Translations under genes and position numbers: made by a program
Part shown: piece after piece, positions 1,757 to 16,173 of the stretch
Position numbering within the stretch: position 1 is the stretch's first letter
Layout of the letters: the number at the start of each line of letters is the position of its first letter
DNA from: Phycisphaerae bacterium SG8_4
GTDB taxonomy: Bacteria > Planctomycetota > Phycisphaerae > Sedimentisphaerales > Anaerobacaceae
Length of the DNA: 17,106 bases
Assembly (NCBI GenBank): GCA_001303465.1
Contig: LJTR01000041.1
Coordinates: forward strand, 1 to 17,106
Direction: 5' to 3'
Notes under the pieces: model-generated
The model's database searches: none
The model's input: only the letters and a program-made list of their open reading frames with translations
What the model was told of the DNA's origin: nothing

Positions 1757-2440
1757 TCAGCCGCCCTGAATCTTTCGCTTCATCTCATCCAGACGTCGAT
1801 CAACCTCGGCATCCGATTCAAGAACTTTCACACGTTCGTATGGAAAGCTGATTCCCAGCGTCCGCGTTATCTCGTCTGTGATCTCTATTTCGGCCTCCGC
1901 CTCATCGACCTTGGCTTCCATCCTTGCAACCATATCAAGGATGCTTTTGCCGGCGCCGCCTGAGAAGCTGTCCAATTTCTCATTGAGCGACAGCTCTCTT
2001 CTGATTTCCCTGCTTCTCTTTACAATATCATTCTGCTTGAGCTTCAGCTCTTTAAGGCTTTGCCGCAGTTGCTTGCGCGCCTGGGTGGCGGAATTGTAAG
2101 CCGATTCTGAAGTAGCAAGATCGTTTCTGCACTTGTTCACTTGCCTTTCCGCCTGGATTTGGGCTGCGATTGCTTGCCTGGCAGTATCCATTTCGTTGGC
2201 TTTCACCGCCAAGACGGCACCCTCTTTAAACCGAACAATCTTTCCCAATCCGGCATCCAATCTTCTGCGATCGCCTTTGACTGCCGAAAGGGCTTTTGCC
2301 TCCGCTCGGGCTGCTTCCCTGACCTTCTCTTCCATTTCCCTCATCAATTGAGGCAGGATCATTTCAGGCTCTTCCAGAGAAGCGAGAAATGCTTCGATCC
2401 GTGATTTTGTTATGGCTCTTAACCGACTTATGCGTCCCAT
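1757..2440 (-). CDS. pspA: PspA/IM30/Vipp1-family protein, paralog 1 (ESCRT-III superfamily).
   Basis: The N-terminus MGRISRLRAITKSRIEAFLASLEEPEMILPQLMREMEEKVREA matches the canonical PspA start (compare E. coli PspA [27 protein letters not shown]...). The protein is helical and coiled-coil rich (AIAAQIQAERQ...). An alternative TTG start at 2473 would overlap the upstream TGA by TTGA. Confidence 0.85.
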   Translation of the reverse strand: MGRISRLRAITKSRIEAFLASLEEPEMILPQLMREMEEKVREAARAEAKALSAVKGDRRRLDAGLGKIVRFKEGAVLAVKANEMDTARQAIAAQIQAERQVNKCRNDLATSESAYNSATQARKQLRQSLKELKLKQNDIVKRSREIRRELSLNEKLDSFSGGAGKSILDMVARMEAKVDEAEAEIEITDEITRTLGISFPYERVKVLESDAEVDRRLDEMKRKIQGG

Positions 2441-2469
2441 GTGTGGTGGTCGCTCGATTGGAGTCGACC

Positions 2470-5400
2470 TCAATTTGCCTTCTTTGGTTTCGCCGGACTA
2501 CTTGTCTTCTTTGTCACCTTCGCCTTGACCTGCCGTCTTTTTTCTTTCGACGCCAGAGGTTCCTTTTCGGGCTCATACTTGCTCTTCAGGACGTCGATCA
2601 ATTTTTTGTAGCCTTTGACCATCGCCTCAAAGCGTTCCATCAAATCGGCGATGACCTTTTGCTTACTCTTCTTCTCCTCATGCGACATCGGCAAGAGCCA
2701 GGTCTCCATGGCTCTGAATTGTTCTTCCAGAACAGACGTCAGCATATTGATGTCTTTCTGAGCCTTCAGCTCGATCGCCGTCTTGGGCACCTTGGATTGC
2801 TCGGCTCGCTGAAGTTTCATTTCGTCGATCATCTCCGACATTCTGCTGAGAACCTGTTGACCGACCTCTCTGAATGCATCCCTCGTCGGTTCTGCGTGCT
2901 CAGCTTCCTTCTTGCTCCTGATATCTGAAATCCCGTCGGCGATAACATCCTTCAAAGATTCCAGCCCGGCGCTAAAGGCGTTCAATTGCCGAATTACCTT
3001 ACCGACATTATCTTCAGCATCGCCGCCCAGCAGAAGATTCCTTGCGAACGTCTTCTTTATGTCTTGCCAGCGTTGAGCCTGCTCGGGCGTCAATCTGCCG
3101 GTGAGCTCTCTGAACTTGAGTAGATTTGACTCGGTGCCTGTGGTAAGCGTTTGAGCATCCTGCTCGTAGGTTGAATAGATCAGGTTCCACAACTCCTGGT
3201 CGTTCATAATCGGCAGGACTCTGCCGGCAATGCGGTTCATGTTTCGATAAGATCCCTGGAGCAGGAATGGCGGCTCGGTCCTGTATTGCTCTGATTGTCC
3301 GGCGGACAGTATGTACTGGCGATTCACCTTCAGGACGACATCGCGGACCACGTAGAGCTTTTTCATTGTGGAGAGATGTTCGTCGAGTTCCTCTGCCGAG
3401 TAGCTGTCCTCAAATTCTATGCCCTCCTGCTGTCCTGTCTCTGCGACGCGCATTATCATGTACACATCGTTCTGGCTTCGACGAGCGAGCTTTTCGAGAA
3501 CAGGGTTCGAGGTCAGGCAGTTCTCAATATAGCTTGCGACGAATTGATCATAGTTGTCGCCGACAATGTCACCGATGTTGTAGACGTCCGCTCTGTTAGC
3601 AAGCATGTCAGGTATCCTGAATCTCTCGCCGCTTTCGGTGTAGGGGTTGCCGGCCATGACGACGCAGACACGCTTGCCGCGCAGATCGTAAGTCTTCGAG
3701 CGCCCTTTGTAGACACCTTCGACCTTTCTCTGGGCGTCGCAGAGCGAAATGAATTTCTGCAGGAATTCTGGGTTTGTGTGCTGAATATCATCGACATAGA
3801 TCATCACGTTATCGCCCATCTCGAAGGCCAGGTTGAGCTTCTTGAGCTCTTGCCTCGATGCGGCATTGGGGGCCTCGTCAGGATCGACGGACGAAACCCT
3901 ATTGCCCACGGCCGGGCCGTTTATCTTGATGAAAGTCAAGCCGAGACGATTGGCAACATATTCCATAAGCGTTGTCTTGCCGTAGCCTGGGGGAGAGATC
4001 AAGAGCAGCAGCCCCTGCCGGTCGGTTCTCTTGTCCTGGCCTTCGCCGCCGATCTGTTTGGCGAGGTTGTCGCCGATCAAAGGCAGATATATCTGGTCGA
4101 TTAGCTTGTTTCGGACAAACGTCGTGAGCACGCGAGGTTGAAATTCTTCGAGATGCAGCTCGTGACTGTAGGTTTCGACCAGTTCGTTCCTGCATCTCTG
4201 ATACTGGTGAAATTTCGGCGCAAACTCCTCATCGTGGCGCCGGAGCTTCTTCATAAAGTGGCAGTAGTTCAGGTCATAGAGCCCATTGCTTATCAACGCA
4301 TGAGTGCCGAGCATCTCGGCGATTTGACGCTCAGTGCTCTCTTCGAGGGCGGCGTCGGACGAGTTTGGCGGCAGAAGCAGCGCCGCAGCTTCATCGGCAT
4401 ATTCGATTCTCGATGCATCGCCGGCGCGCAGAACATACGAGTGTACCCAGTCGCGCAACAGTCTGTAATTGCCCGCGGGATCCGCCGAGACCGCATCGAG
4501 TGAGTTGGTGAATCTGGTGCTGTAATTCTTCTGCTCTATGTGGGATTCAAAGTCGTCTTTTAGGGCGACTGCACACGGATCGATAATGAATTTGTCATCG
4601 CCTGCAAGTTCGTAGAACAAATATTCAGCCGCCTCGTCGATCAAATCAGCATCGAACAGAGCCGTCGTCTCCACAAATTCGGATAGAGAGTCCGCGATTT
4701 GCTCAACATAATTCTCTTGTTTGTCGCTGCCGCCGAACAATTCACCGGCTTGCCCCATGCTCTTAATCTTGGCGTTCAGCAGTTGTTTGCCTTCGTTGTT
4801 CTCGCTCAATTTCCAGAAAACCGTCCCAAGGGCTCTCGCCTGCGTGGAGTACTTCAAAAGGCCAATCCTGCTCCTGAGGTCAACCAGGGCCTTCAGTATT
4901 CTTGCGGCATCGCAGTCGTGCACGCCTTTTACGTAGCCCTCATCATACCGAGGCCCCATATATGCCTGAACTCGACTTAAGACAGCGTCTAGATCCGATG
5001 TTTGAACAAACTCGAGTTCCTCGCAAGCGGCCTCGATCTGGCGGAAGAGCTTGTAGGCAAGATACTCGGCCCTGTAAACATCATTCGTCTCAGAGACGAT
5101 ATTGGAATCCCAGACGTCTCTCGTTTCGTTCAATCGTTCATCGTCTATCCGTTCAAAAAATCCGGTGCCTGTCAGATGAAAATACATATCGTCTTCTTTG
5201 CGGACGATCGTGCCCTCCAGATCCTGACGATTGACCGCAAAACGCTGATTGCCGAGGCGAATGATGTTCTCTCCATCCTCGTAGAGGGCCTGCCTGTCCT
5301 TAAGCTGCCTTATGGAGTCCTGATGTATCGTCTTGAGCTTGCTCTTGAGATCCTCGGCCTTTACGTTGTCGCCGAGGTCGATCAACTGCTGGATAGTCTG

Positions 5401-7827
5401 ACGGATCCTGTCGATCATCAGGTCACCAGCAAAATACCCGTTTATCTCATCTATAGCCGTAAAGCTCTGAATCCGGTTCTGTATGCCTTTTAGAATCCTC
5501 TCCGCCGATGCCATCAGGGCCGATGCCCGCTGGTTGTGCTCGGCTACCAGTTGCACTTTTCTCGACTCAAAGGCATTGTATAATTGCTCTCTCTTTTCAG
5601 CAAGTTGCACAATGAATTGCTCAAAATCCGCGAACTTGCTCTCTAGTGTTTCGAGTTGAACCGTTACCTTCGTAAGATACTCATCGCATTTCTCAGGCGT
5701 GTTGCAGATGTCGAGATAATTGATGACCGACTGGCCAATCAGTTTTAACTGGGAACTGAATTCTGCCTGTCCCTCAATCCTCCCCAGCTCGTTAAGCTTG
5801 TTCTTCAGCGAGGATTTGACCTGATTGACCTGAGAGTAGACCAGCGAAATATTGTCGATAATCGCTATCGTTTCCGTCGCATCGGCAATCTTAAGATTGC
5901 TGACTATGTCTGTCAGCATTTCCAGTTCGTTCGCGGTCTTTTCCACTTCGGATTCGAGTTCTTTTGCCTCGGCAGCCTTGGATACCTGCGGCACCTTCTC
6001 GCCACTGCATTTGATGCTCTCTCGATAGGGATCCAACGACTGGGCTGTAAGAAGAAATTCCGCGCACATCTCCGAGAGCTTGTCGGTATGCTCGGCGACC
6101 TCCTTCTCCAGCGACTCAACGGCCTCGACGTCGGCATACTGCAGGTCTTTGAGCGATATCACTTCGCCCCGCGTGGCGCGCAGCTTCGTCAGGTGCTCGA
6201 CAAATTGATCTATATCGTCTAACTGCTCGTAGTCTATATCGCCGATCATCTCGCGCAAGTTTCGGGCAGTCTCTTCTATTCGCAGGCTGGTATTGCGCTT
6301 GGTCCTAACGACCTTTTCGAATTCATCGACGGCGGCACTTGCGGCCTCGTTTATCTGAGCCAACGGCTGCGACAGAACGAAGGTATCCTTTGAGGCGATC
6401 CAAAAATAGCTGTCTTGAATCTCCTCAGCCTTCTTCGCAACCTCGAGGTACAGGCCCGAATAGACTTCTTCCCGGTCCACGAGATTCATCAGCTCATGGC
6501 ATTCAGCCATGCAGGTGACGATATCTTTGTTGCCGATCTTATAGAGTTCCGAGTCACTCTTAACCGGTATCGAGAAATCCGGGCCATAGTAGGGGGTCTG
6601 CCATATCTGTATGGCATGATGCTTTTTTGCCTCCTCGTCCGCCCTGAAATAGATCAGAGTGCCATCGTCAAAAAACGAATAGCCATTGCACAGGACCGGC
6701 GGGCTGGCCTGTTGTTCGATTATGTTGTACGAAAGGAGAATATAAACGCCGCTGTCGCGATTGTAGAAAATGTACAAGTAATCCTCTCCGTTGGGAGAGG
6801 CGATGCGCTTTTCAAATACCATATCCTCCATTTGGGTCTCAAATTGCTTCAGCGCACCAGTTTGCAGATAATAACCTCTCGGGAAAACAATGCCGTGGTC
6901 TTCCGGGAGCAATACACACGAGTCTTTGATAGCATCGAGCCGCAGCGCTTTCTGCAACTTCTCATTGTAAAGGATGTAGCGAAACTGCCGTTCCTGGTAG
7001 GGCCGGATTTTCATCAGGATAACGTTGCCGACCACGGCATAATAGATCTCGGCGTCATTGAGTGTCTGATCAGGATCATCCACCGGTTCGCAGTAGATTC
7101 CCTCGCCCGTCTCTGTGTTGTCCTCGATCTTTACCGTCAGGTCCCCGCCGATGGTCTCCACAAATACTCTGTCTTCGATTGAAGCGTGCGGATTCCTACC
7201 GCTTCGATGCATGTCCTGAGTCACGCGCCTCCATTCGAATTCGTGCTGCGGTGGAAATACATATTCGTGGTCACTGCGGTTGTCGAGATACTGTATGCTG
7301 TCTTCTCTGATCAACCACTTGAAAGTCTTAACGTCCGAAACGCTCTTTCCGACACGGAACACCATGAACAAATGATTTCCTATGACGGCAAACTTCACAA
7401 ACCTCGTGAGCCTGTAGAACTTGTAGAGATGTTGGAAGTCCTCCTCGAATCGACGGTCAGTGATCAGATCCAGCGCGCAGGGCACAAACGTGCCGTCTTT
7501 CCATTCGTAGACCGAGAAAACATCCTCAAGCGTGGTCTCAGTCCTGAGCCCGATAAACACGTTGTAGCCGAAAATGAACTTGTCAGCGACCGGAACCACA
7601 TCTCGCGGGACGCAGTTGTTCCTGGTGGATATTCTCTTGCTTGACAGGAGTCTGCTTTCGACCGCGCCAAAGACGTCTTTTCTGGCATTGTTGAGTCTCT
7701 GCAGTCTCTGCAGAAGCTCTTTGCTGTGGGCTTTGAGCCGGTTGGTGATTATCTCGTAGGTGCCGCCCTGCAGTTGGACCTTGTCCTGACTTTCGCCCCT
7801 GGCATTGTTCGGGTCGTTCTCTGCCAT
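2470..7827 (-). CDS. Giant (1785 aa) multidomain AAA+ P-loop ATPase of unknown function, with long coiled-coil regions and a Lys-rich C-terminal tail.
   Basis: A single uninterrupted ORF with ATG at 7825-7827 and a GAGAGG Shine-Dalgarno-like element upstream. Walker A is LLLISPPGYGKTTLMEYV and Walker B is VMIYVDDIQH. A sensor-1-like VCVVMAGNP and an RFRIPDMLANRADVYNI segment follow, resembling the ...LPEALLDRFDV sensor region of MoxR/AAA_5 ATPases. A 400-500 residue central region rich in E, K, L and Q is predicted coiled coil. The C-terminus is basic (KEKRRQVKAKVTKKTSSPAKPKKAN). No TM segments are obvious. Confidence 0.8.
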   Translation of the reverse strand: MAENDPNNARGESQDKVQLQGGTYEIITNRLKAHSKELLQRLQRLNNARKDVFGAVESRLLSSKRISTRNNCVPRDVVPVADKFIFGYNVFIGLRTETTLEDVFSVYEWKDGTFVPCALDLITDRRFEEDFQHLYKFYRLTRFVKFAVIGNHLFMVFRVGKSVSDVKTFKWLIREDSIQYLDNRSDHEYVFPPQHEFEWRRVTQDMHRSGRNPHASIEDRVFVETIGGDLTVKIEDNTETGEGIYCEPVDDPDQTLNDAEIYYAVVGNVILMKIRPYQERQFRYILYNEKLQKALRLDAIKDSCVLLPEDHGIVFPRGYYLQTGALKQFETQMEDMVFEKRIASPNGEDYLYIFYNRDSGVYILLSYNIIEQQASPPVLCNGYSFFDDGTLIYFRADEEAKKHHAIQIWQTPYYGPDFSIPVKSDSELYKIGNKDIVTCMAECHELMNLVDREEVYSGLYLEVAKKAEEIQDSYFWIASKDTFVLSQPLAQINEAASAAVDEFEKVVRTKRNTSLRIEETARNLREMIGDIDYEQLDDIDQFVEHLTKLRATRGEVISLKDLQYADVEAVESLEKEVAEHTDKLSEMCAEFLLTAQSLDPYRESIKCSGEKVPQVSKAAEAKELESEVEKTANELEMLTDIVSNLKIADATETIAIIDNISLVYSQVNQVKSSLKNKLNELGRIEGQAEFSSQLKLIGQSVINYLDICNTPEKCDEYLTKVTVQLETLESKFADFEQFIVQLAEKREQLYNAFESRKVQLVAEHNQRASALMASAERILKGIQNRIQSFTAIDEINGYFAGDLMIDRIRQTIQQLIDLGDNVKAEDLKSKLKTIHQDSIRQLKDRQALYEDGENIIRLGNQRFAVNRQDLEGTIVRKEDDMYFHLTGTGFFERIDDERLNETRDVWDSNIVSETNDVYRAEYLAYKLFRQIEAACEELEFVQTSDLDAVLSRVQAYMGPRYDEGYVKGVHDCDAARILKALVDLRSRIGLLKYSTQARALGTVFWKLSENNEGKQLLNAKIKSMGQAGELFGGSDKQENYVEQIADSLSEFVETTALFDADLIDEAAEYLFYELAGDDKFIIDPCAVALKDDFESHIEQKNYSTRFTNSLDAVSADPAGNYRLLRDWVHSYVLRAGDASRIEYADEAAALLLPPNSSDAALEESTERQIAEMLGTHALISNGLYDLNYCHFMKKLRRHDEEFAPKFHQYQRCRNELVETYSHELHLEEFQPRVLTTFVRNKLIDQIYLPLIGDNLAKQIGGEGQDKRTDRQGLLLLISPPGYGKTTLMEYVANRLGLTFIKINGPAVGNRVSSVDPDEAPNAASRQELKKLNLAFEMGDNVMIYVDDIQHTNPEFLQKFISLCDAQRKVEGVYKGRSKTYDLRGKRVCVVMAGNPYTESGERFRIPDMLANRADVYNIGDIVGDNYDQFVASYIENCLTSNPVLEKLARRSQNDVYMIMRVAETGQQEGIEFEDSYSAEELDEHLSTMKKLYVVRDVVLKVNRQYILSAGQSEQYRTEPPFLLQGSYRNMNRIAGRVLPIMNDQELWNLIYSTYEQDAQTLTTGTESNLLKFRELTGRLTPEQAQRWQDIKKTFARNLLLGGDAEDNVGKVIRQLNAFSAGLESLKDVIADGISDIRSKKEAEHAEPTRDAFREVGQQVLSRMSEMIDEMKLQRAEQSKVPKTAIELKAQKDINMLTSVLEEQFRAMETWLLPMSHEEKKSKQKVIADLMERFEAMVKGYKKLIDVLKSKYEPEKEPLASKEKRRQVKAKVTKKTSSPAKPKKAN

Positions 7828-7877
7828 CCTCAGCCTCTCACAAAATCACCAGCCACACCCATTCGACTTCGCTCAGA

Positions 7878-7908
7878 GCCTGCCCTGAGCTTGTCGAACG
7901 GGGCAGGC
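7878..7908. promoter_or_regulatory. GC-rich inverted repeat (8-bp stem, 15-nt loop) in the 89-nt spacer between the flotillin and giant ATPase genes.
   Basis: GCCTGCCC (7878-7885) pairs with GGGCAGGC (7901-7908). It is not followed by a U-tract on the - strand transcript. It could be an RNA stability or processing element, or an attenuator. Confidence 0.25.
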
Positions 7909-7916
7909 CCAGCGGT

Positions 7917-9905
7917 TTACAGCCCCAGTTCCTTGACGGGCTTGTTCGCCATGCCAAGATCCTTGACGGTACTCAGCAGGTTGCTCAAAACGCCCTTGTT
8001 CTCTTTGTCGGATTTTGCTATCAGTTTGGCAACCAACGCTGAAATTGTAAGGTTCTTAATGTCTTCGGACTTCAATCCGAACTGAGAGACAAACCGTCTG
8101 ATCTGCTGTGCTGTGGTCTGCTCATCGGAGCCGATCAGGCTTTCCTTGAGATCGGTCAGCACGCCACTGTTGTTGACCGCTCTGTCCACACTCTTGCCGG
8201 TCGTTATGGCATTGACCAGCCGTTCGAAGAACTGGTTCTCGCCGCCAATGATTTCGATGTTGGCCGCCTTGAGTGCTTCAGCCACTATCTTGGCCTGCTC
8301 GGCCGCAATCTCTTTCCTGATGTTTATTTCAGCAAGTTCGATTTCCAGGTCCTTGTTGAGTCGCAGTTTGAATTCCTCGTGCTCTTTTCCGACTGCGTCA
8401 AATATCTTCATGGCCTCGGCCTTATCTCGGATGCCGTCGGCGTCGGCATGGTACTTCAACTCGAGGACCTTTGCTTCGGCAGTACCCTCCTTCTCAAGTG
8501 CAACAGCCTTTGCCTCCATCACTTCGGCCTCCGCCGTGCCCGCAACGGCATGTTCTTTCACAGAAGCCAGCGCGAGTGACTTCTTTGCCGCGGCGTTCTT
8601 CTCCGCCGCCTTGAGATTCGCATCGGCATCTATCAGTTTCTGTTCGGCGTAGAATTCCTCGGCCTTCTTCGCAGCCTCTGCGGCTTTGATGTCTTTGACG
8701 AGTGCCTGCTCGGCTTCTTCCTCGGCCTTTGTGATCTGTACGCTCTTGTGACGTTCGGCGGTCGCAAACTCCCGCGTATCCTTGATCTTCTCTTCCTCTG
8801 TCACGACGGTCTTCTCAACCATCACCCTCTCGCGGATGACAGCCTGCAGCTCCTTTTTCTCCGCCTCGACCGCTTTTTCCTTGTCGACCTGAGCTATCGA
8901 CACTACGCGTTCTCGCTCGGTGGCCTCCAACCCTCTGTCTCGCTCGACTCGCTCCAGTTCGATGGCGTCCGTACGCTCCTTGTTTCTTGTGGCGACGATA
9001 ACCTGCCGCTGCTTGTTTTGCTCGGCAACGAAGATTTCTTCCTCGGCGCTTATTCTAGCCTTCTCCGCCTTCTCTCGCTCGGCCTCCTGGACCCTCTTCG
9101 TCTCGGCCTCTTCTCTGGCCTGAATCGAGGCGATTTCGCGTTTCTGTTTTGCATCCGCCTCGGCCAGTTGCTTGTTAAGCTCAAGTATCGCTTCGTCGGC
9201 CTCTACGTTCTGTTGTGTGATGGTCTTGTCTTTTTCACGCTCGCGATCATTGGCCAGCTCATACTGTTCGGCGGTCAGCACAGTAATCTTCTTGATACCC
9301 TCGGCATCGAGGATGTTGTCGGGATTAAGCAGCTTCTTGTCAGTCTGCTCGAGGTAGTCGATGGCCGCATCCTCGAGGACATAGCCGCTCAGGTCGGTTC
9401 CAATCACTTCGAGTATCTGCTCTCGGAACCGCACACGGTCGGTATACAGTTCGACGAAGTCAAACTGCTTGCCGACTGTCTTGAGGGCTTCGGAGAACTT
9501 CGCATCGAACAGCTCGACCAATGCCTGGCGGTCGGAGGCTCTCTCACAACCCAGCGACTGAGCGACCTTGATTACGTCTTCGACCGTGTTATTGACCCGA
9601 ACAAAGAATGCGACCACGATATCCGCGCGAAGATTGTCTTTGCAGACAAGACCCTGCACGGCGCGCCGGTCGATCTCGATCCGCTTGACCGATACATCCA
9701 TGTATTCGACGCGGTGCATTATCGGTATTACGAACTTGCCTGAAAAGCTGACCTGAGTTCCGCCGACACCGTTTCGAATCAGGGCCTGCCCTTGCGACAC
9801 CTTCTTGTAACACTTGAGAAGTAAAGCAAAGAAGCCCGTGCCGACGATGGCTAAGACAACTACAGCTACAATGAATAATTCTTGTGCAAATGCAAGCATG
9901 GTCAT
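7917..9905 (-). CDS. Flotillin-like SPFH/band-7 protein (YqiK/FloT-like), 662 aa.
   Basis: N-terminal membrane hairpin LFIVAVVVLAIVGTGFFALLL. An SPFH-like region follows (GGTQVSFSGKFVIPIMHRVEYMDVSVKRIEIDRRAVQGLVCKDNLRADIVVAFFVRV). Then comes a very long Glu/Ala/Lys-rich coiled coil (EAEKKELQAVIRERV..., AEEEAEQALVKDIKAAEAAKKAEE) typical of flotillins. The ATG at 9903-9905 overlaps the NfeD stop TGA (ATGA). The ATG at 9897-9899 (third residue) has better spacing from the GGAG. Confidence 0.9.
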   Translation of the reverse strand: MTMLAFAQELFIVAVVVLAIVGTGFFALLLKCYKKVSQGQALIRNGVGGTQVSFSGKFVIPIMHRVEYMDVSVKRIEIDRRAVQGLVCKDNLRADIVVAFFVRVNNTVEDVIKVAQSLGCERASDRQALVELFDAKFSEALKTVGKQFDFVELYTDRVRFREQILEVIGTDLSGYVLEDAAIDYLEQTDKKLLNPDNILDAEGIKKITVLTAEQYELANDREREKDKTITQQNVEADEAILELNKQLAEADAKQKREIASIQAREEAETKRVQEAEREKAEKARISAEEEIFVAEQNKQRQVIVATRNKERTDAIELERVERDRGLEATERERVVSIAQVDKEKAVEAEKKELQAVIRERVMVEKTVVTEEEKIKDTREFATAERHKSVQITKAEEEAEQALVKDIKAAEAAKKAEEFYAEQKLIDADANLKAAEKNAAAKKSLALASVKEHAVAGTAEAEVMEAKAVALEKEGTAEAKVLELKYHADADGIRDKAEAMKIFDAVGKEHEEFKLRLNKDLEIELAEINIRKEIAAEQAKIVAEALKAANIEIIGGENQFFERLVNAITTGKSVDRAVNNSGVLTDLKESLIGSDEQTTAQQIRRFVSQFGLKSEDIKNLTISALVAKLIAKSDKENKGVLSNLLSTVKDLGMANKPVKELGL

Positions 9906-10588
9906 TTCTCCAATTCTAACGGTGCAATTGTATATGTTCCCTTTTCATTGTCCTTTCCAACTATCACCGCCTCATCGCCCTTGTGAAATACGTGCGCACC
10001 GTCTGAAATCACGTTAAGAACAATGGGGGCTCCCTTGGTCTTGACTTCGGCTTGCCCCATCTTGTCTGAAACCGAGGTTGTCACGACAGTGCAAATGCGA
10101 CCTATGACTTTCCTTGGGGCGTTGTAGTCCTTGTTGAACATTTCGTAGACTTTCTTAAGCGGCATGGCAAAGATCCTGCAAATAAAAAGACTCGCTACTA
10201 AGCTTATCGCGTATACCGGCACGGCGAGAAGTAATGAACTGCCCGGATTGAAGTAATGGTTGCCGAACATGCACAGCATCCACATACTCAGGATCAGAAT
10301 GCTGGACAGCAGCATGATCGGCACCTCGCCGACATAGAAGAAATGCATGATCGAACGCAGAACGCCGTGCTGACTCATATCAAGGTCGAGGTCGCCCTCC
10401 GCATCGACATCGACATCCACGTCAACGTCGCCGCCCGCCTCAAGGCCGGAATCGAAGAGTTCAACATCAAGAAAGTCAACATCCAGCGCACCCAGAATGA
10501 CGGTGATCCAGTAAATCACGTTCAGGATCAAGAGAACCGTCACAACTGCGTTTACCGGCGAAAAGGCAGTTTGGATCAAGTCAATCAT
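9902..10588 (-). CDS. NfeD/YqiJ-like membrane protein (228 aa); the usual partner of SPFH/flotillin proteins.
   Basis: Three predicted TM helices (VVTVLLILNVIYWITVILGAL, IMLLSSILILSMWMLCMFG, LLLAVPVYAISLVASLFICRIFA) and a C-terminal soluble beta-rich domain (GRICTVVTTSVSDKMGQAEVKTKGAPIVLNVISDGAHVFHKGDEAVIVGKDNEKGTYTIAPLE) resembling the NfeD OB-fold. It lies immediately upstream of flotillin, the same gene order as yqiJ-yqiK and yuaF-floT. It contains an acidic (DV)n stretch. Coordinates are taken from the ORF track. Confidence 0.75.
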   Translation of the reverse strand: MIDLIQTAFSPVNAVVTVLLILNVIYWITVILGALDVDFLDVELFDSGLEAGGDVDVDVDVDAEGDLDLDMSQHGVLRSIMHFFYVGEVPIMLLSSILILSMWMLCMFGNHYFNPGSSLLLAVPVYAISLVASLFICRIFAMPLKKVYEMFNKDYNAPRKVIGRICTVVTTSVSDKMGQAEVKTKGAPIVLNVISDGAHVFHKGDEAVIVGKDNEKGTYTIAPLELEK

Positions 10589-10606
10589 CTCATGGCCCCT
10601 TCGGTT

Positions 10607-11281
10607 CTACTGCTGCTTCTCCTCCAGCAGGTCCTTCATCGCCTCTAACTCGGCCTCAACCTGCAGGTCTCTGGATCTCTCGGCAAGTTGAATATCGGTC
10701 AGGGCGTCACTGTGGATTTCCTGCCGTATCTCCACTTCCGCTTCGGTCTGCAGGACTTCATCTTCAAGGCGATCGAAAGCGACCCCTTCTCCACTCACTG
10801 CCGCCGTTTTGTCTAAATGTTGTTCGAAGGCGTTCTGAGCTTCCGCGACTCTCTTTCTCGCTCTCAGATCCTGCAGTTTCAATTTCGCAGCCTTTAACTG
10901 CTCCTGCAGCTTCACGATGTTGTCACGCAAAACATCGTATGTCTTGCAGCCGTGTTCGACGCCCGGTTGAATCTGGCTGATCCGCTCGGCGAGCTTGACT
11001 TTTTCAGTCAGGGCCTTGCGAGCCGCCTCTTCGTCGCCCGCCTTGAGGGCTCTCTCGGCCTTGGCCTTCAACTCATCCTGTTGGGCCTTGAGCTGCTCAA
11101 GCTCTCGTTGCATGCGCTTGAATGTCGCCCCGTATGATGCGGCACTCTCGCGACCTTCCAGCACGGTCTCCTCAAGCTCTTTGATCTTTGACTCAAGTTC
11201 TTGTTCTGGAGGTTCGACCTTGTCCAGAAGCCAGTTTATGTTGGCTTTTGTGATTCTTCGCATTCTATCGAATATGGACAT
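10607..11281 (-). CDS. pspA: PspA/IM30-family protein, paralog 2, the one closest to canonical PspA.
   Basis: MSIFDRMRRITKANINWLLDKVEPPEQELESKIKELEE closely parallels the E. coli PspA N-terminus. GAGGAG lies 8 nt upstream of the ATG. The protein is all helical coiled coil and ends ...LLEEKQQ. Confidence 0.9.
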   Translation of the reverse strand: MSIFDRMRRITKANINWLLDKVEPPEQELESKIKELEETVLEGRESAASYGATFKRMQRELEQLKAQQDELKAKAERALKAGDEEAARKALTEKVKLAERISQIQPGVEHGCKTYDVLRDNIVKLQEQLKAAKLKLQDLRARKRVAEAQNAFEQHLDKTAAVSGEGVAFDRLEDEVLQTEAEVEIRQEIHSDALTDIQLAERSRDLQVEAELEAMKDLLEEKQQ

Positions 11282-11371
11282 TTCTCTATCTCCTCATTTC
11301 TCGGACCATAGGCGTAACAAATCAAAAGACTAAGAAATCATCTCAAAGACAAGTCAGACGCGGGACGGATT

Positions 11372-12070
11372 CTATTGCCCGCCGCCTTCTGTCTCACCAG
11401 CCTTTTGCCTAAGTTCGGCCAGACGTCTGTCAATTTCTGCCTCGTTGCTCAATTCCTGAAGTCTCTTCTCCAATGAGGCGCTCGCCGTCCCCTCGCCCGT
11501 GAAGCTTGCCTGGATTTCAAGCTCCGCCTCGGCCTCTTCGATTTTGGCTTCCAGTCGTGCGACTGCGTCAAGAATGCTGTCACCGGAACCGACCGTGCCA
11601 GAAACAGTGCTCTGGATCTTCTTCTGAACCTTGGCGACTCTTGCGCGGGTCAGTATCTCCTCCTTTTTGGTGCGAAGCTCTGCGAGCTGCTCCTGGATCC
11701 TCTTGCGTGACAGCGTCGCCCGCTCAAGAGAGCCTTGGGCTATTTCAAGATTCTTTTGTGAGAAGTCTGAAGCACGCTCTGCCTGAATCTGGGCATCGAG
11801 AGCCTGTCGGGCGGTCTCCTCATCACCCTTCTGCAGCGCCATGTAGGCACCGTCTCCGTACTTGTCGATCGTAGCCTTGTGCTTCTGGACTTCGCGTTCG
11901 GAATGCTTGACTGTCGCGGTGGCTTTGGCTTCGGCCTCGGTGGCAGCTTCGAGCTGTTCTTCCATCTCCTTGACCAAAACAGGAAAAACAAGCTCAGGAT
12001 CTTCAAATCTGCTTAGAAATGCCTCAATCTTACCTACGGTGACGCGGTGCAAACGTGTGAAAAGTCCCAT
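11372..12070 (-). CDS. pspA: PspA/IM30-family protein, paralog 3 (232 aa from the preferred start).
   Basis: MGLFTRLHRVTVGKIEAFLSRFEDPELVFPVLVKEMEEQLEAATEAEAKA...QKGDEETARQALDAQIQAE. The start at 12070 is preferred over the ORF-track 12094 because AGGAG lies 6 nt upstream and the N-terminus is then canonical. It is more similar to paralog 1 than to paralog 2. Confidence 0.9.
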   Translation of the reverse strand: MGLFTRLHRVTVGKIEAFLSRFEDPELVFPVLVKEMEEQLEAATEAEAKATATVKHSEREVQKHKATIDKYGDGAYMALQKGDEETARQALDAQIQAERASDFSQKNLEIAQGSLERATLSRKRIQEQLAELRTKKEEILTRARVAKVQKKIQSTVSGTVGSGDSILDAVARLEAKIEEAEAELEIQASFTGEGTASASLEKRLQELSNEAEIDRRLAELRQKAGETEGGGQ

Positions 12071-12120
12071 TGCTCTCTCCTTTCCGGCTTCCACTAAAGT
12101 ATTTAGAGAATTACCGACGA

Positions 12121-12138
12121 CGGAGGGACGATTCCCTC
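12121..12138. promoter_or_regulatory. Perfect 7-bp palindrome GGAGGGA-cgat-TCCCTCC in the leader about 50 nt upstream of PspA paralog 3.
   Basis: Read directly from the sequence. It is either a leader-RNA hairpin containing a GGAGGG pseudo-Shine-Dalgarno sequence or a dyad operator for a DNA-binding regulator. Confidence 0.2.
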
Positions 12139-12325
12139 CTTATCGTTATACCCTTGAGGGTAGTAAATCCTCGCGAGCAAGATCATAAACTGTTGTTGTA
12201 AAACCACTTGCCCGCGGAATAACGGGAACTTTCAATCGGGATCACTACAACAATGCCCATAAGACATTATCCCGGCATCTCATATGTGTAAAGAACAAAG
12301 TTGCGAACTCTTTCTGGACTCCTGC

Positions 12326-12343
12326 CCCCGCGCAGGCGCGGGG
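12326..12343. terminator. GC-rich hairpin CCCCGCG-cagg-CGCGGGG (7-bp stem, 4-nt loop) in the 415-nt intergenic region; a possible U-tract-less terminator or RNA structure.
   Basis: Read directly from the sequence. It lies about 170 nt downstream of the lipoprotein stop in the - strand direction. No adjacent T-run on either strand, so intrinsic-terminator function is uncertain. Confidence 0.25.
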
Positions 12344-12510
12344 TCGTCATTTCAATGGCCCACCTAAAATCGCTTGTCTCATCGCTACTACATAGACTAC
12401 TTCTGGCTGCAAGAAATTCAATGATTCTTAGAAAAATTTTGCTCTTTCGCTAAGGTGATATGGAGCAGCTCTTTGGCTGCTGCGCCAATATGCCGATCGA
12501 GACCGAACTG

Positions 12511-12690
12511 CTACTCTCTAACACGCTCGATATCCTCCCATCGATCCCAGCTTTCATTTGGGTTTCCGTGTATCCTGCGATCGTCCTCCATTTGACGTTC
12601 CAGCCACAGAGACTCTGTCCGGTCACAGCAGGATGAACATCCTGGCAGCAACACTGTCAGAAATAGAATAATGATCATCAGAATCTTCAT
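12511..12690 (-). CDS. Small (59 aa) putative lipoprotein.
   Basis: The ATG at 12688-12690 is preceded by GGAGAGGAGG. The signal peptide MKILMIIILFLTVLLPG|CSSCC has a lipobox-like LPGC. The mature part is short, acidic and Trp-rich (ESLWLERQMEDDRRIHGNPNESWDRWEDIERVRE). The ORF-track start at 12735 adds 15 residues with no RBS. Confidence 0.5.
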   Translation of the reverse strand: MKILMIIILFLTVLLPGCSSCCDRTESLWLERQMEDDRRIHGNPNESWDRWEDIERVRE

Positions 12691-12777
12691 AGTACCTCCT
12701 CTCCGGCACGCAGCATTTAGCACTCGACAGTTCACCTCGTGATATGCAGCGGCGCTAAGCCGATTCTGGACTTGACT

Positions 12778-14226
12778 CTATTGATCAACAGTGCTTTCAT
12801 CGGGTGAAAGCTCACTGTCGCCGCTCCTTGCCTGTCCAGCTGCATTATCCATCAGTATCCGTTCGTGATGGCGCATTGCGCCGAGCGCGACCTCACAGGG
12901 AAAGGTAAACAGCTGAAACGACTCGGCTGAGATCCTGTCCTCGTCGAGGTCTTCGAGCACTCTTCTAAATATGTCAAAGAGTTTCTGGCGGACCTCGCGA
13001 AGCTCATGAATGTTCTCGATCTTGCGTGCCTGCTCGATAAGGCCCAGAATCTCCAGGTTGTACATGTCTGCCCGGTTCTTCTGTCGCTGCTGGAGACGCA
13101 ATCGAATGTGCCATATCCCGGATGCACACAGAACGATAACGGAAAGAAACAGCGCCAGAGGCTCTGCATATGTCACTATGAAGGCCGGTCTTTCACGGCG
13201 ATAGAAAGCCTTGGCGCCGGCGTGCAGGGGCACACCAAGGTCCTGGCTTGAACCGGCCAGTCGCATAGTGGCCGCACGAGGGTTTTCTGCCATCAGTTTG
13301 TTGCGATGTTCATACAGGATCTTTGTGATTACCCTGATGGCCTCTTTGTCGACTCGCTTGTGGGTTAGCAGGAGCGCTTGGACCGAAACCGAAGGAACGT
13401 CCTTCTCCGGTACGGCCGGCTCACCCCAGAATGCCGCTCTGTGGATAGCCGCGTCCGCCACGTACGGATACCATGTTCGGACGGCGTTGGCGTCAATGGC
13501 AAGCAGTCCGGCAGGCCTGTTGCTCTGCCTCAGCAGTCTGCTCATGCACTGGTTGCCGACTGCTATGAATGTGATAATTGCATCTACTTCGTTGCGAAGA
13601 AACGCATCATTGGCATCTTCAAGGCTGAGGACCTTGGAAACCGTGAGTTCATCTTCCATGCCGTAGCGCTCGACAAACCTGTAAAAGAAGGAGCCGTGGT
13701 CGTTAGGATCTGCCTCTTCGCCTAGGAGACTAGACATCACCGCAATACGTTTACCTCTGAGTCCACCGATGCTCTCGATTTCTTGGTCAGCTACAAGGTG
13801 GAGAATTTCCGGGAACAACGAAGCGACCCCCTGAACCGACGGCTTTGTCAGCGTATCATCCTGAACAATGGCAAGCTCGACTTCGCCATCTTCTAGCAGC
13901 TGCATGTTTCTGCAAGATCCGGGCGTTGGTTTGGTCTCAATTCGCACCCTCTTTTGATTATCGTTGATTACCTGTTTGAGGGTCTCGCCAAACGCGTAGT
14001 ATTCTCCGCCCTTTCCTGCTGTCGCCAGGGTTATCGACACGGGCGAATGCACGCGGATCAATTTCACTGCGAAAACCACAACCATCACGATACTTGCCAG
14101 TGCAATTGTGGCAATCAGCCTGGCGTAGAGAGATGTCCCTTCCTTGCCCTGTGGAGCTCGTGATCGCCCGGTAATCCATCGCAGCAGCGACGAGATGGTA
14201 CCGGCAAGGCTTCTAAATATTCGCAT
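12778..14226 (-). CDS. Membrane protein carrying a periplasmic TAXI-family (TRAP-associated) solute-binding domain between two TM helices, plus a cytoplasmic helical C-terminal domain; sensor or receptor-like.
   Basis: The ATG at 14226 (MRIFRS...) has AAGGAG 8 nt upstream; the ORF-track start at 14247 is TTG. TM1 is IATIALASIVMVVVFAVKLI. The TAXI signature is ATAGKGGEYYAFGETLKQV...PGSCRNMQLLEDGEVELAIVQDD...LRGKRIAVMSSLLGE. TM2 is LALFLSVIVLCASGIWHI. About 115 cytoplasmic residues follow (QQRQKNRADMYNLEILGLIEQARKIENIHELREVRQKLFDIFRRVLEDLDEDR...). No kinase or permease domain is present. Confidence 0.75.
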   Translation of the reverse strand: MRIFRSLAGTISSLLRWITGRSRAPQGKEGTSLYARLIATIALASIVMVVVFAVKLIRVHSPVSITLATAGKGGEYYAFGETLKQVINDNQKRVRIETKPTPGSCRNMQLLEDGEVELAIVQDDTLTKPSVQGVASLFPEILHLVADQEIESIGGLRGKRIAVMSSLLGEEADPNDHGSFFYRFVERYGMEDELTVSKVLSLEDANDAFLRNEVDAIITFIAVGNQCMSRLLRQSNRPAGLLAIDANAVRTWYPYVADAAIHRAAFWGEPAVPEKDVPSVSVQALLLTHKRVDKEAIRVITKILYEHRNKLMAENPRAATMRLAGSSQDLGVPLHAGAKAFYRRERPAFIVTYAEPLALFLSVIVLCASGIWHIRLRLQQRQKNRADMYNLEILGLIEQARKIENIHELREVRQKLFDIFRRVLEDLDEDRISAESFQLFTFPCEVALGAMRHHERILMDNAAGQARSGDSELSPDESTVDQ

Positions 14227-14335
14227 AGGTGTTGCTCCTTTTGTCAAGCATCTGTGCGGAGTTCTCAGTCAACGTCTTGTAGTCACTCATACAGGAAAGC
14301 ACTACTGACGATTCTTTCGCCCATTGAGGCCCTCT

Positions 14336-15097
14336 CTATGTCATCTGATCCACAGTCTGTGCGGCCTTGTCCACAACATTCATGAATCTACTATAAAGCT
14401 CCTCTGCGTCTTTTGGCGGTAATGAGGTGTCACGATCACGCAGATCGCTGACATCTCGGAGCGTGCCGGCATCGAGATCAAGTTTCTCAGCCGCAACATC
14501 GACAATCTCGTCTCTCGAAGGTAAATCCTGCCCAGTGAGAGATACGACCACACGCAGCGTTTCAAGAAGACCACCAATTGCCCGCGACATCATCTGGGTC
14601 AGCGCCCGGCCACTTGCCATTATGTAATGCCGGCGCATACGAAGCAGAAGGTTCTTGATCTGCTGCTCGCATCGCAAGCGCAGGTGCTCGCGACCGATCT
14701 TGAGGTTTCCGAGCAGATCCGAACCTGACAGCACTCTGTACGATTCCTGCATGGCAAGGAATTTAACTGGAAACACATCTGCCGATGAACGCAGATTCAT
14801 CTCGGTGATGAAGAAGGGGGCAATGCCGTGACGGCGTCCTCGCAAAACCGGATCCAGTACCTTCTTCAGGATAGGCACGTCAATGCGCTCAAGAACGACG
14901 AGAATATTGATGTCACTCTTGCCCGGCCTGTAGTCGTTGCGGGCAGCACTCCCGTAAAGACAGATGCACTTGACGTCAATATCTGATATGTCACTTAGAG
15001 TACGACAGAGTGCTGTAAGTGAGTCCTTCTCTTGTTCTGAGAGCTTTGTTCCCGACAGGTCACTTGGTTCGTTCATTTTGTTTCCCTTCACAATCAC
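14336..15097 (-). CDS. Polbeta-superfamily nucleotidyltransferase, about 246-253 aa, similar in size and architecture to KNTase/ANT(4') (N-terminal NTase domain plus C-terminal helical domain).
   Basis: The NTase motif is hG[GS]x9-13Dh[DE]h: CICLYGSAARNDYRPGKSDINILVVL. Candidate starts are GTG at 15097, 10 nt after the radical-SAM stop, or ATG at 15076 with AAGGGAAA upstream. It is co-directional with, and tightly spaced after, the radical-SAM gene. Confidence 0.8.
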   Translation of the reverse strand: MIVKGNKMNEPSDLSGTKLSEQEKDSLTALCRTLSDISDIDVKCICLYGSAARNDYRPGKSDINILVVLERIDVPILKKVLDPVLRGRRHGIAPFFITEMNLRSSADVFPVKFLAMQESYRVLSGSDLLGNLKIGREHLRLRCEQQIKNLLLRMRRHYIMASGRALTQMMSRAIGGLLETLRVVVSLTGQDLPSRDEIVDVAAEKLDLDAGTLRDVSDLRDRDTSLPPKDAEELYSRFMNVVDKAAQTVDQMT

Positions 15098-15106
15098 GTG
15101 AGCATA

Positions 15107-16168
15107 TTACTTTTTGACCAATTGGCTGTACACGGATCTTTTGCTGACGCCACCTCGGGAGCCACCCTCTGATCTTCTTTTGATATGCGCCAACAACCCG
15201 GATCGGCCTTGAACGGATCGCCGCTCGTTGCGTAGGAGAGACACTTTAGACAAGAGGTCACTGTGGTAGTATAGTTCAGCGAGCGGCGTTTCGGTGAGGT
15301 TCCCCACACGAATCGGCATGCGACGACATGGGTAGAGGTCGCCGTTAGCCTGGACCGTCAGAAGTGAATCGCCGGCAGTGCAGTGATAGGGTCTGCCGCC
15401 TGCCACGAGGAACTGAAGGGCCCGGTGCATTGCGATTTCGGTTCTCCCGAACCAGCGGCGCCTCGCCTGATTGCGGGCCTTGAGCATAGTCTCGAAGAAC
15501 TCTCGTGTTTCATCGGGCGTGAGCATCTGCTCGTGCAAACTCGAGCCGCTCCCTGTAGGGATGAGCCGGTCAGCCCAGAGGCGTGAGATTCTGAGCTTGC
15601 TTGCCAGCCGGGCAACCTCGGCAAACTCCCGGAAGTTGTCACGATGGGCCGTAAACGAGATGAAGGTTTCGATGCGCTCTGCCCTCAGAGATCTCACCGC
15701 CGCAACTGTTCGATCAAAGTTGCCTGGCCCGCGAATTCTGTCATGCGTTTCATGCGTACCTTCGATGCTCACCTGCACAAAGGCCGGGCCCAATCTGCGC
15801 AGCCGTCTGGCCATAACTGTATCGATGAAGCTCCCATTGGTGAGGATTGCAAAGCTGAAGTTCTCTCGCTTGGCCGCGAAAACCTCAAGCAAATCCAGAA
15901 AGTCCCGGCGAATAAAGGGCTCACCGCCGGTTACAGTCACATGTCCTCGAACCCGGCGTCCGCAGTCCTGTCTCCATGATTTCAGCAGATCAGTGAACTG
16001 ATCCAACACTTTGAGCAACTGCTTGAATCCGAGTTCAAGGCCGGCGTACTTGTCCTGGTAGCAGTGGGCGCACCTGAGGTTACATTGCTCAGTCAGGTGC
16101 CATTGAAGCAGCAATCCCGGCGGCACGTATCGCTCTTGACAACATATCCTCACTGTTTCCGTACTCAT
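15107..16168 (-). CDS. Radical SAM enzyme with a C-terminal twitch/partial-SPASM auxiliary-cluster motif; a putative peptide-maturase.
   Basis: The true start is ATG at 16166-16168 (MSTETVRICCQERY...), preceded by GGAGGA 9 nt upstream. CX3CX2C is CNLRCAHCY, followed by GGEPF. The C-terminal motif is CTAGDSLLTVQANGDLYPC (CX13GX4C). The ORF-track N-terminal extension MRGRLWRRRWLWRRW... is an alternate-frame reading of the upstream gene's GGC-rich tail and is not real. Confidence 0.9.
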   Translation of the reverse strand: MSTETVRICCQERYVPPGLLLQWHLTEQCNLRCAHCYQDKYAGLELGFKQLLKVLDQFTDLLKSWRQDCGRRVRGHVTVTGGEPFIRRDFLDLLEVFAAKRENFSFAILTNGSFIDTVMARRLRRLGPAFVQVSIEGTHETHDRIRGPGNFDRTVAAVRSLRAERIETFISFTAHRDNFREFAEVARLASKLRISRLWADRLIPTGSGSSLHEQMLTPDETREFFETMLKARNQARRRWFGRTEIAMHRALQFLVAGGRPYHCTAGDSLLTVQANGDLYPCRRMPIRVGNLTETPLAELYYHSDLLSKVSLLRNERRSVQGRSGLLAHIKRRSEGGSRGGVSKRSVYSQLVKK

Positions 16169-16173
16169 CAGGA

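Follow-up and report, generated by a model that had tools for sequence, protein, structure and literature searches.

The window analyzed here, a stretch of 17,106 nucleotides (nt) from the planctomycete Phycisphaerae bacterium SG8_4 (contig LJTR01000041.1), carries six head-to-tail open reading frames (ORFs) on its minus strand. Read from the upstream end, they encode two PspA/IM30 proteins, a YqiJ-like membrane protein, a flotillin, a giant AAA+ ATPase, and a third PspA. The cluster is probably a lineage-specific, PspA-enriched version of a widespread YqiJ–flotillin–ATPase membrane-maintenance operon, for which we infer the mechanism set out below. The invariant core of the operon is the YqiJ–flotillin–ATPase triad, and PspA is a recurrent add-on. 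In Bacteroidota and Pseudomonas, PspA is attached to this core together with a CesT/YjfI gene; in the window, three PspA paralogs are attached without CesT.

The gene cluster and its conserved core

All six co-directional ORFs marked in the initial annotation, a reading of the sequence that preceded this work, are present. The first PspA gene, up2 or PspA-3, occupies positions 11372–12094 and is followed by up1 or PspA-2 (10607–11281; 224 amino acids, aa), which ends 18 nt upstream of the gene for the YqiJ/YuaF-type (NfeD-like) membrane protein (9902–10588; 228 aa). The stop of this gene and the start of the YqiK-type flotillin gene (7917–9905; 662 aa) share a 4-nt ATGA overlap, which had been read from the sequence, follows from the ORF coordinates, and recurs in relatives. 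The ATPase gene (2470–7827; 1785 aa) lies beyond an 89-nt spacer, and the down PspA gene, or PspA-1 (1757–2473), closes the cluster. The same PspA–PspA–YqiJ–flotillin–ATPase–PspA order is found in six other Phycisphaerae-type loci with entirely different flanks. Their ATPases are 90% (L081/L082), 70% (L083/L084), 67% (L089), 67% (L090), 61% (L091), and 58% (L092) identical to that of the window. The identical order amid unrelated flanks establishes that the clustering of the six genes is not due to chance.

A survey of 80 loci with homologs of the ATPase, drawn from one genome per species and annotated with hidden Markov models built from the window proteins, spans Planctomycetota, Bacteroidota, Verrucomicrobiota, Desulfobacterota, Kiritimatiellota, Omnitrophota, and Clostridia. 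A co-directional flotillin gene lies directly upstream of the ATPase gene in 70 of the 80 loci, or 70 of 73 when only those whose upstream DNA is long enough are counted; seven of the ten flotillin-less loci sit at contig ends, with less than 1.6 kb of upstream DNA. A YqiJ homolog precedes the flotillin gene in 56 of the 80. PspA is found within 10 kb of the ATPase in 22 loci and is absent from that interval in 58, among them those of the Phycisphaerae relatives L008 and L028, whose ATPases are 64% identical to that of the window. Because flotillin accompanies the ATPase in 70 of 73 loci and PspA in 22 of 80, the regular partner of the ATPase is the YqiJ–flotillin pair. Homologs of the ATPase thus do not generally occur without PspA or flotillin neighbors, a possibility that the initial annotation had raised.

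Where PspA is present, it always adjoins the module, and its detection is clearly bimodal. It stands directly upstream of YqiJ in 19 loci, downstream on the same strand in two, and downstream on the opposite strand in two, and PspAs from differing clades of the tree described below occupy the module. An association seen in 27% of loci is meaningful but not obligatory; by a rough estimate, chance adjacency would lie well below 1%.

In the Bacteroidota loci the genes run CesT_Tir_1, PspA, YqiJ, flotillin, and ATPase, preceded by a divergent cHTH regulator gene. The 131-aa gene upstream of PspA is identified as CesT_Tir_1 by a match of 188.6 bits. No CesT/Tir-like gene (YjfI/DUF2170 or CesT_Tir_1) was found in the window, either as an ORF or as a match in a Pfam scan of ten window proteins, and such a gene is also absent from L081–L084 and L089–L092. 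Upstream of the first PspA gene of the window there are only a 74-aa lipoprotein-like ORF and a TAXI-family TRAP gene. The triad itself reaches further: a Streptomyces replicon encodes a hypothetical protein, a "flotillin family protein", and a "DNA repair ATPase" in succession, and Deinococcus carries an equivalent triad. In Streptomyces and on Pseudomonas plasmids, the flotillins are annotated as "flotillin family protein" or "SPFH domain-containing protein".

Three position-specific PspA paralogs

The three PspA proteins match PF04012 (PspA_IM30) at 85.9 bits (up2), 106.3 bits (up1), and 57.2 bits (down), all above the gathering cut-off of 33.9, and each covers about 216 of the 220 profile positions, in agreement with their first assignment as PspA/IM30 paralogs. 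The up2 protein also matches TIGR02977 of NCBIfam with an E value of 1.8e-28. At the equivalog level of TIGR02977 all three fall short (75–107 bits against a cut-off of 243), as they do for LiaH (31–57 bits against 380). By these scores they are members of the family and not orthologs of E. coli PspA or LiaH.

Pairwise identities range from 27 to 39% (32% for up1–up2, 27% for up1–down, and 39% for up2–down). In a neighbor-joining tree the PspAs split into three clades, each of which matches one position in the operon, with the up2 clade as sister of the down clade. The up1 protein clusters with the PspAs of L024 (Kiritimatiellota), L016 (Omnitrophota), and L074, whose genes immediately precede that of YqiJ. 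Judged by this tree and these identities, the three are old, retained, position-specific paralogs. Recent tandem duplication, which had been named as a simpler account of the triplet, is ruled out by the 27–39% identity and the three separate orthologous clades; the paralogs keep their places around the other genes.

The ORF of the down PspA extends to TTG 2473 (238 aa), and its extreme end had been read as a possible TTGA overlap with the ATPase gene. The profile match begins at residue 12 of this ORF, and ATG 2440 opens the stretch MGRISRLRAITK, a typical PspA N-terminal helix. Orthologs that follow the ATPase in L081–L084, L089–L092, L002, and L074 are 224–229 aa long and begin 12–47 nt past the ATPase stop. 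The profile start and the lengths and spacing of the orthologs favor ATG 2440, which is probably the true start (227 aa, 29 nt past the ATPase stop), and the overlap is probably an artifact of ORF extension. For up2, whose 240-aa ORF runs from GTG 12094, the true start is most likely ATG 12070 (232 aa). The sequence MGLFTRLHRV begins at this position, preceded by the sequence GGAAAGGAG, and orthologs of 227–232 aa occupy the same place in L081, L083, and L089–L092. The N-termini MGLFTRLHRV, MSIFDRMRRI, and MGRISRLRAI co-align and, on reading, resemble the pattern of alpha0, the amphipathic helix through which PspA binds membranes. The ESCRT-III fold of PspA and its ability to form polymers are taken from earlier work (PMC7619361).

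The YqiJ-like protein and the flotillin

The YqiJ-like protein is borderline against Pfam YqiJ_N, at 22.7 bits with a cut-off of 23. Among 27 members of its family, 11 match YqiJ_N with E below 0.01 (best 3.6e-8) and two match the NfeD model weakly. Pairwise BLASTP of the single sequence against E. coli YqiJ is not significant. A profile of the 27 members aligned to E. coli YqiJ with hhalign reaches a probability of 96.4% and an E value of 1.3e-9 over 132 columns, so the homology is visible only at the profile level. The alignment takes in the C-terminal small beta domain of NfeD type and extends to residue 214 of 228. An acidic DVDVDVDVD loop, hydrophobic segments, and the small beta domain complete the picture of the NfeD/YqiJ-like protein that the initial annotation had proposed.

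The flotillin was likewise assigned correctly, and its identity emerges once its parts are taken separately. The full-length 662-aa protein gave zero matches in Pfam (with E up to 10), NCBIfam, and PDB sequence searches, a miss that is probably caused by its long low-complexity coiled coil. The first 233 residues alone match Band_7/SPFH at residues 35–176 with 45.8 bits (cut-off 23.6; E 9.5e-12). BLASTP aligns the protein with E. coli YqiK at 31% identity over 437 residues (E 6e-45), stopping at residue 444. Its layout comprises an N-terminal membrane anchor, with a hydrophobic stretch at residues 10–30 read from the translation, the SPFH/Band_7 domain, about 250 aa of coiled coil rich in Glu, Ala, and Lys, and a C-terminal helical region. 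Searches with the last 205 residues and with the whole protein found no Pfam family at E below 0.1 that would correspond to a C-terminal "Flot" domain. In some relatives (L091 3331–3885 and L012 6954–7505) the YqiJ-like gene is followed by an extra short Band_7 gene of about 184 aa, and only then by the gene for the long flotillin.

Architecture of the giant ATPase

The 1785-aa ATPase contains DUF3686 (PF12458; residues 37–475, E 1.2e-186), DUF7902 (PF25472; residues 597–679, E 1.3e-24), and AAA (PF00004; residues 1274–1364, E 1.3e-7), with a match to AAA_5 at 22.6 bits against a cut-off of 22. It has more than 5000 homologs, and the same three-domain architecture is present in 240 of 240 among the matches listed. 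The closest (52–100% identity) come from Planctomycetota metagenome-assembled genomes of Phycisphaerae, Sedimentisphaerales, and Anaerohalosphaeraceae. From end to end the protein consists of an N-terminal helix, a beta-rich propeller-like domain, about 700 aa of helical repeats, the AAA+ module, a helical tail, and a Lys-rich C-terminus.

An AlphaFold2 model of residues 1–720 (mean predicted local distance difference test, pLDDT, 83) shows a long helix at 21–53, some 30 beta strands at 59–410, and helical repeats from 427 onward. The DUF3686 region (window positions 6403–7719, minus strand) corresponds to this long helix and the strands after it, which in the model form a divergent beta-propeller-like domain. 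Foldseek searches with residues 1–720 (positions 5668–7827) return clathrin heavy chain, IFT-A, Vps18, and ROD with E values of 1e-6 to 3e-4. This likeness to coats and tethers, a propeller followed by a helical solenoid, is one of architecture only, with template modeling (TM) scores of at most 0.35 and a large root-mean-square deviation (rmsd).

The AAA+ module (residues ~1265–1600; positions 3028–4035, minus strand) lies in a second model, of residues 1150–1785 (pLDDT 73), which contains one AAA+ core, a lid domain, and a helical tail of low confidence. In this model a beta-hairpin precedes sensor 1 (model residues 219–232), between helix 3 and strand 4 (238–244). Target-normalized TM scores from Foldseek are 0.53–0.58 for the MoxR-type proteins NorQ and CbbQ2, 0.34–0.40 for RuvB, and 0.36–0.42 for Vps4, so the modeled module fits MoxR-type ATPases best, by small margins. 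The hairpin before sensor 1, the MoxR-like motifs, and the TM scores of the model place the module outside the Vps4 (classical AAA) clade, as the initial annotation had anticipated. No MIT domain, the N-terminal part with which Vps4 binds ESCRT-III tails, was found in the ATPase by Pfam, and its N-terminus is occupied by the helix and the beta-rich domain. A VWA domain was found neither in the ten window proteins nor in the called genes of relatives, including those of Pseudomonas aeruginosa.

The motifs of the module are well preserved. Walker A reads ISPPGYGKTT and Walker B reads YVDDIQH, followed by AGNPY...PDMLANR; the elements SPPGYGKTT, DDIQH, and AGNPY...PDMLANR are kept in 82–86 of 86 homologs from all phyla sampled. 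The Walker B motif has Asp-Asp rather than Asp-Glu in 82 of the 86, with D1346 and D1347 invariant; its stretch VMIYVDD comprises residues 1341–1347 (positions 3787–3807, minus strand). Database names for the family are "ATPase involved in DNA repair" (Pfam DUF3686) and "DNA repair ATPase" (NCBI, on thousands of proteins), and JGI annotations label homologs "MoxR-like ATPase".

The flotillin–ATPase junction

The predicted hairpin in the 89-nt spacer between the flotillin and ATPase genes holds up under folding. It occupies positions 7847–7914 on the minus strand with a minimum free energy of −41.3 kcal/mol and a z score of −3.1, and none of 200 shuffled sequences is equally stable. Downstream of it stand GAUUUUG and then the ribosome-binding-like stretch GAGAGGCUGAGG. 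The hairpin is an insertion of about 50 nt relative to the 90%-identical locus L081, where only the flanks of the spacer remain (L081 6448–6486). Four more distant relatives have hairpins at this junction that are unrelated to it but equally stable: L074 (3877–3983), L090 (5918–6000), L091 (5911–6000), and L092 (5944–6000). L089 has a weak fold there, and L083, L008, and L028 have no hairpin. Hairpins at this junction may be a repeatedly used means of expressing the scaffold and the ATPase at different levels. The spacer hairpin occurs once in the window, and the idea that it is a repeated element was dropped for this reason.

Relation to known systems

The core arrangement has been described. 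A comparative genomic study by Ravi et al. in 2024 reported an operon of PspA, YqiJ/YuaF, a band-7 flotillin, and a "beta-propeller + coiled-coil + AAA+ ATPase", built on a CesT/Tir–PspA pair, with Dokdonia donghaensis ANH61663.1 as the example; shortened flotillin–YqiJ(–ATPase) operons without PspA are more widespread, and ATP-dependent remodeling is proposed for PspA–AAA+ associations (PMC11237479). The class, which that paper presents from comparative genomics only, agrees with the window in its four protein families and their order, and its shortened operons correspond to the 58 of 80 loci found here to be without PspA. The Dokdonia-type context was recovered in at least 15 Bacteroidota loci, with ATPases 45–52% identical to that of the window. 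In contrast to that class, with its single PspA and its CesT/Tir gene, the window has two PspAs upstream, one downstream, and no CesT/Tir. The view that the arrangement was uncharacterized thus fails for the core and stands for the three-PspA order, which, without CesT/YjfI and in a planctomycete host, appears new. An association of PspA with Band_7/Flot and NfeD in Acidobacteriota has also been reported by Popp et al. in 2022 (PMC9239133).

A further arrangement occurs on plasmid pQBR103 of P. fluorescens SBW25 (L085; 84437–97641), where YjfI, PspA, rhomboid, DUF2491, DUF350, DUF1190, glutathionylspermidine synthase, YqiJ-like, SPFH, and ATPase genes run in one direction. This locus joins the polyamine-type and the flotillin/ATPase-type PspA contexts that Ravi et al. 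kept apart.

The closest studied relative of the module is found in P. aeruginosa. The locus (L093) encodes DUF2170, PspA, a 213-aa protein, a 688-aa protein, a DUF3686 ATPase, PLDc_2, yaeQ, recJ, and lasB, and the ATPase (P0123; 1746 aa) is 40% identical to that of the window over 1744 aa. We take this locus to be PA3732–PA3727, bacABCDEF, going by the gene numbers of recJ and lasB. The published protein sizes (PMC2587700) enter into the same assignment. By sequence, BacE (PA3728) is the DUF3686 ATPase and the bac operon is the same module as that of the window. The bacABCDEF genes are co-transcribed, and in a bacA mutant the levels of the proteins they encode increase jointly (Wallart et al. 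2024, PMC10948618). The PspA of the operon, PA3731, is required for biofilm formation, swarming, rhamnolipid production, and virulence, and osmotic shock raises it (Mace et al. 2008, PMC2587700). The identity of BacE is given in neither paper (PMC2587700, PMC10948618).

The bac operon resembles the window in the order of PspA, YqiJ-like (213 aa), flotillin-like (688 aa), and ATPase (1746 aa) genes. It differs in having a single PspA, preceded by the DUF2170/YjfI (CesT-like) protein BacA, a PLD-family protein, BacF, at its end, and a proposed sigma-54 site. The window has three PspAs and neither a CesT/YjfI gene, a PLD gene, nor a sigma-54-like motif upstream; a simple test with the pattern TGG-N9-TGC gave zero matches on the minus strand of 12095–12777. 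BacF (L093 12260–12952) is a PLDc_2 protein, which fits the remark of Ravi et al. on an HKD hydrolase in some Proteobacteria.

Other systems share parts of the arrangement. The E. coli yqiJK and B. subtilis yuaF-floT pairs have the same gene order and tight junction, along with the YqiK and YqiJ homology, but the yqiJK locus of E. coli K-12 lacks the ATPase and PspA. In B. subtilis, YdjI is an SPFH protein that brings PspA to the membrane (cited in PMC9239133 and PMC7619361). The pspA-ydjGHI operon therefore encodes PspA with an SPFH/band-7 protein, as the window does, but it has a single PspA, a short, cytoplasmic YdjI, and no giant ATPase or YqiJ-type partner.

The ESCRT-III/Vps4 and Cdv systems of archaea and eukaryotes, like the window, encode several ESCRT-III-superfamily paralogs together with an AAA+ ATPase, and ESCRT-III operates on the principle of a composite polymer served by an ATPase. 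The window ATPase differs from Vps4 in that it lacks an MIT domain, belongs to a non-classical clade, and has four to five times the size; in most genomes, its gene is tied to that of flotillin and not to PspA. HflK/C–FtsH, in which an AAA+ enzyme accompanies an SPFH assembly, offers an analogy. FtsH itself is a protease with a membrane anchor and belongs to the classical AAA clade; the DUF3686 protein lacks both a protease domain and a predicted membrane span. The MoxR-type proteins NorQ, CbbQ, and RavA resemble the window ATPase in AAA+ superposition, in the AAA_5 match, and in the GNP...P..L.NR motif. They are about 250–500 aa long and have a VWA-domain partner; the window ATPase, in contrast, has some 1250 residues before the module, Asp-Asp in Walker B, and no VWA protein.

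Proposed mechanism and alternatives

The PspA-enriched membrane-maintenance operon would work as follows. Flotillin, in the inner membrane, and the YqiJ/NfeD-like protein would build an oligomeric SPFH scaffold facing the cytoplasm. The AAA+ module would mediate oligomerization of the ATPase, and docking on the scaffold would fall to the propeller-like head and the long helical arms. In nucleotide-dependent cycles, the scaffold and its clients would be assembled, remodeled, or released. The membrane-sealing effectors recruited to the scaffold would be the three PspA paralogs, which possibly polymerize with one another and may also number among the clients of the ATPase. By analogy with the bac operon, whose phenotypes and osmotic induction suggest it, the physiological role may be that of an envelope or membrane stress module.

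Several observations weigh against this model. Three loci, L018, L027, and L047, are truly without a flotillin or YqiJ gene despite at least 7.6 kb of upstream DNA; their hosts are one Desulfobacteraceae, one Cytophagaceae, and one Bacteroidia. A consensus scan for sigma-70 promoters and terminators gave no usable operon boundaries in the window; since neither promoter nor terminator can be assigned, co-transcription in the source organism is a prediction. The Asp-Asp of Walker B may mean slow hydrolysis and a switch rather than a motor. The lack of a VWA partner also counts here, because MoxR-type ATPases usually work with a VWA-domain protein. Finally, the target of the ATPase, be it flotillin, PspA, or another protein, is read from gene neighborhoods alone.

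The ATPase could instead be a dedicated motor for disassembly and recycling of PspA polymers, a non-homologous counterpart of Vps4, with flotillin and YqiJ serving merely as a platform. In this clade PspA genes bracket the ATPase gene, with the down PspA 12–47 nt past the ATPase stop in every relative, and the age and fixed positions of the three paralogs hint at a composite polymer. Bacteria are noted to be without a Vps4-like ATPase, and PspA duplications to occur in few lineages (PMC7619361), and the ATP-dependent remodeling proposed by Ravi et al. for PspA–AAA+ associations (PMC11237479) points in the same direction. Nevertheless, this role is unlikely: in 58 loci, L008 and L028 among them, PspA is missing from the 10 kb around the ATPase gene, and flotillin is present almost throughout. 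The missing MIT-like domain, the non-classical AAA+ module, and the Asp-Asp of Walker B also argue against it. The initial annotation had proposed the ATPase as a remodeling motor or scaffold for PspA or flotillin polymers. Of this, a role chiefly on PspA is weakened by the PspA count and the non-Vps4 module, and the data would be better matched by an ATPase that acts on assemblies of flotillin and YqiJ and has PspA as an additional effector or client.

A mainly structural role, that of a coat or scaffold whose beta-propeller and long helical region would resemble those of membrane-coat proteins, is quite improbable. In this case the AAA+ module would not be a motor; it would slowly switch, with its nucleotide, the assembly of the protein on flotillin domains. 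The Foldseek matches behind it are of low TM (at most 0.35) and large rmsd, and the strict conservation of the Walker A, sensor-1, and Arg-containing motifs across phyla argues for a working active site. A membrane-acting system for anti-phage defense or abortive infection might come to mind, since large NTPases beside membrane effectors are common in defense islands and copies of the module reside on megaplasmids. It is very unlikely: PADLOC returned only P-loop and coiled-coil noise for the six proteins, with 18.6 bits for the best match, to the P-loop; the genes on either side have housekeeping or metabolic functions and differ among relatives; and the family is broadly and stably distributed. 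That the ATPase is a DNA repair enzyme with incidental membrane-gene neighbors, as the Pfam and NCBI family names, weak RuvB_N-type P-loop matches, and a recJ gene three genes downstream in P. aeruginosa might suggest, hardly merits belief, and neither domains, gene context, nor literature lend support to the database name. No nuclease, helicase, DNA-binding, or other DNA-related domain was detected in the ATPase with Pfam and NCBIfam, and its RuvB/RFC matches span about 45 residues around Walker A. Membrane proteins are its conserved neighbors across at least seven phyla, with no conserved repair gene among them (recJ is not kept beside the module elsewhere). No paper in the collection searched mentions DUF3686, or flotillin along with a DNA repair ATPase; a search on YqiK with YqiJ and an ATPase likewise returned no paper.

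Flanking genes

The cluster is preceded by a small lipoprotein-like ORF (12511–12735, minus strand), which reads MKILMIIILFLTVLLPGCSSCC from ATG 12690. A GC-rich hairpin, CCCCGCGCCTGCGCGGGGG, at about 12325–12350 separates it from the first PspA gene, and the operon probably has its upstream limit at these two elements. Further upstream lies the TAXI-family TRAP solute-binding protein (12778–14247, minus strand; 489 aa), whose family match stops at residue 350. The remainder is an unusual extension of about 140 residues with a hydrophobic stretch and a charged helical tail. An unrelated cluster at 14336–17070, also on the minus strand, encodes a nucleotidyltransferase-domain protein (14336–15097), a radical SAM/SPASM protein (15107–16270) whose best match is SbtM-like and far below cut-off, and a TIGR04222-domain membrane protein (16174–17070). 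Downstream of PspA-1, a convergent gene on the plus strand (584–1738) encodes a 384-aa protein without a family match. The closest relative has a syntenic counterpart of 82% identity (L082 9445–10578); the more distant six-gene loci have none at this place.

Implications

The operon class to which the window belongs has been published before, and phenotypes are on record for one of its members; the mechanism proposed here for it is one that we infer. Since BacE is the DUF3686 ATPase, hypotheses on this enzyme can be tested in the genetically tractable P. aeruginosa. Two questions concern the PspA field: how PspA polymers are disassembled in bacteria, which appear to lack Vps4, and whether mixed polymers form, PspA duplications being found in fewer than 10% of lineages (PMC7619361). 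With three diverged PspAs, a flotillin, and a conserved AAA+ ATPase in one operon, the locus is a natural candidate system for both.

It is conceivable, if doubtful, that the three PspAs form a composite ESCRT-III-like polymer that is nucleated on the flotillin/YqiJ platform and remodeled or recycled by the DUF3686 ATPase. If so, the composite polymer and its ATPase would be an independently evolved counterpart of ESCRT-III/Vps4 that uses a non-classical AAA+ enzyme, and the wider flotillin–ATPase module would be its ancestral platform.

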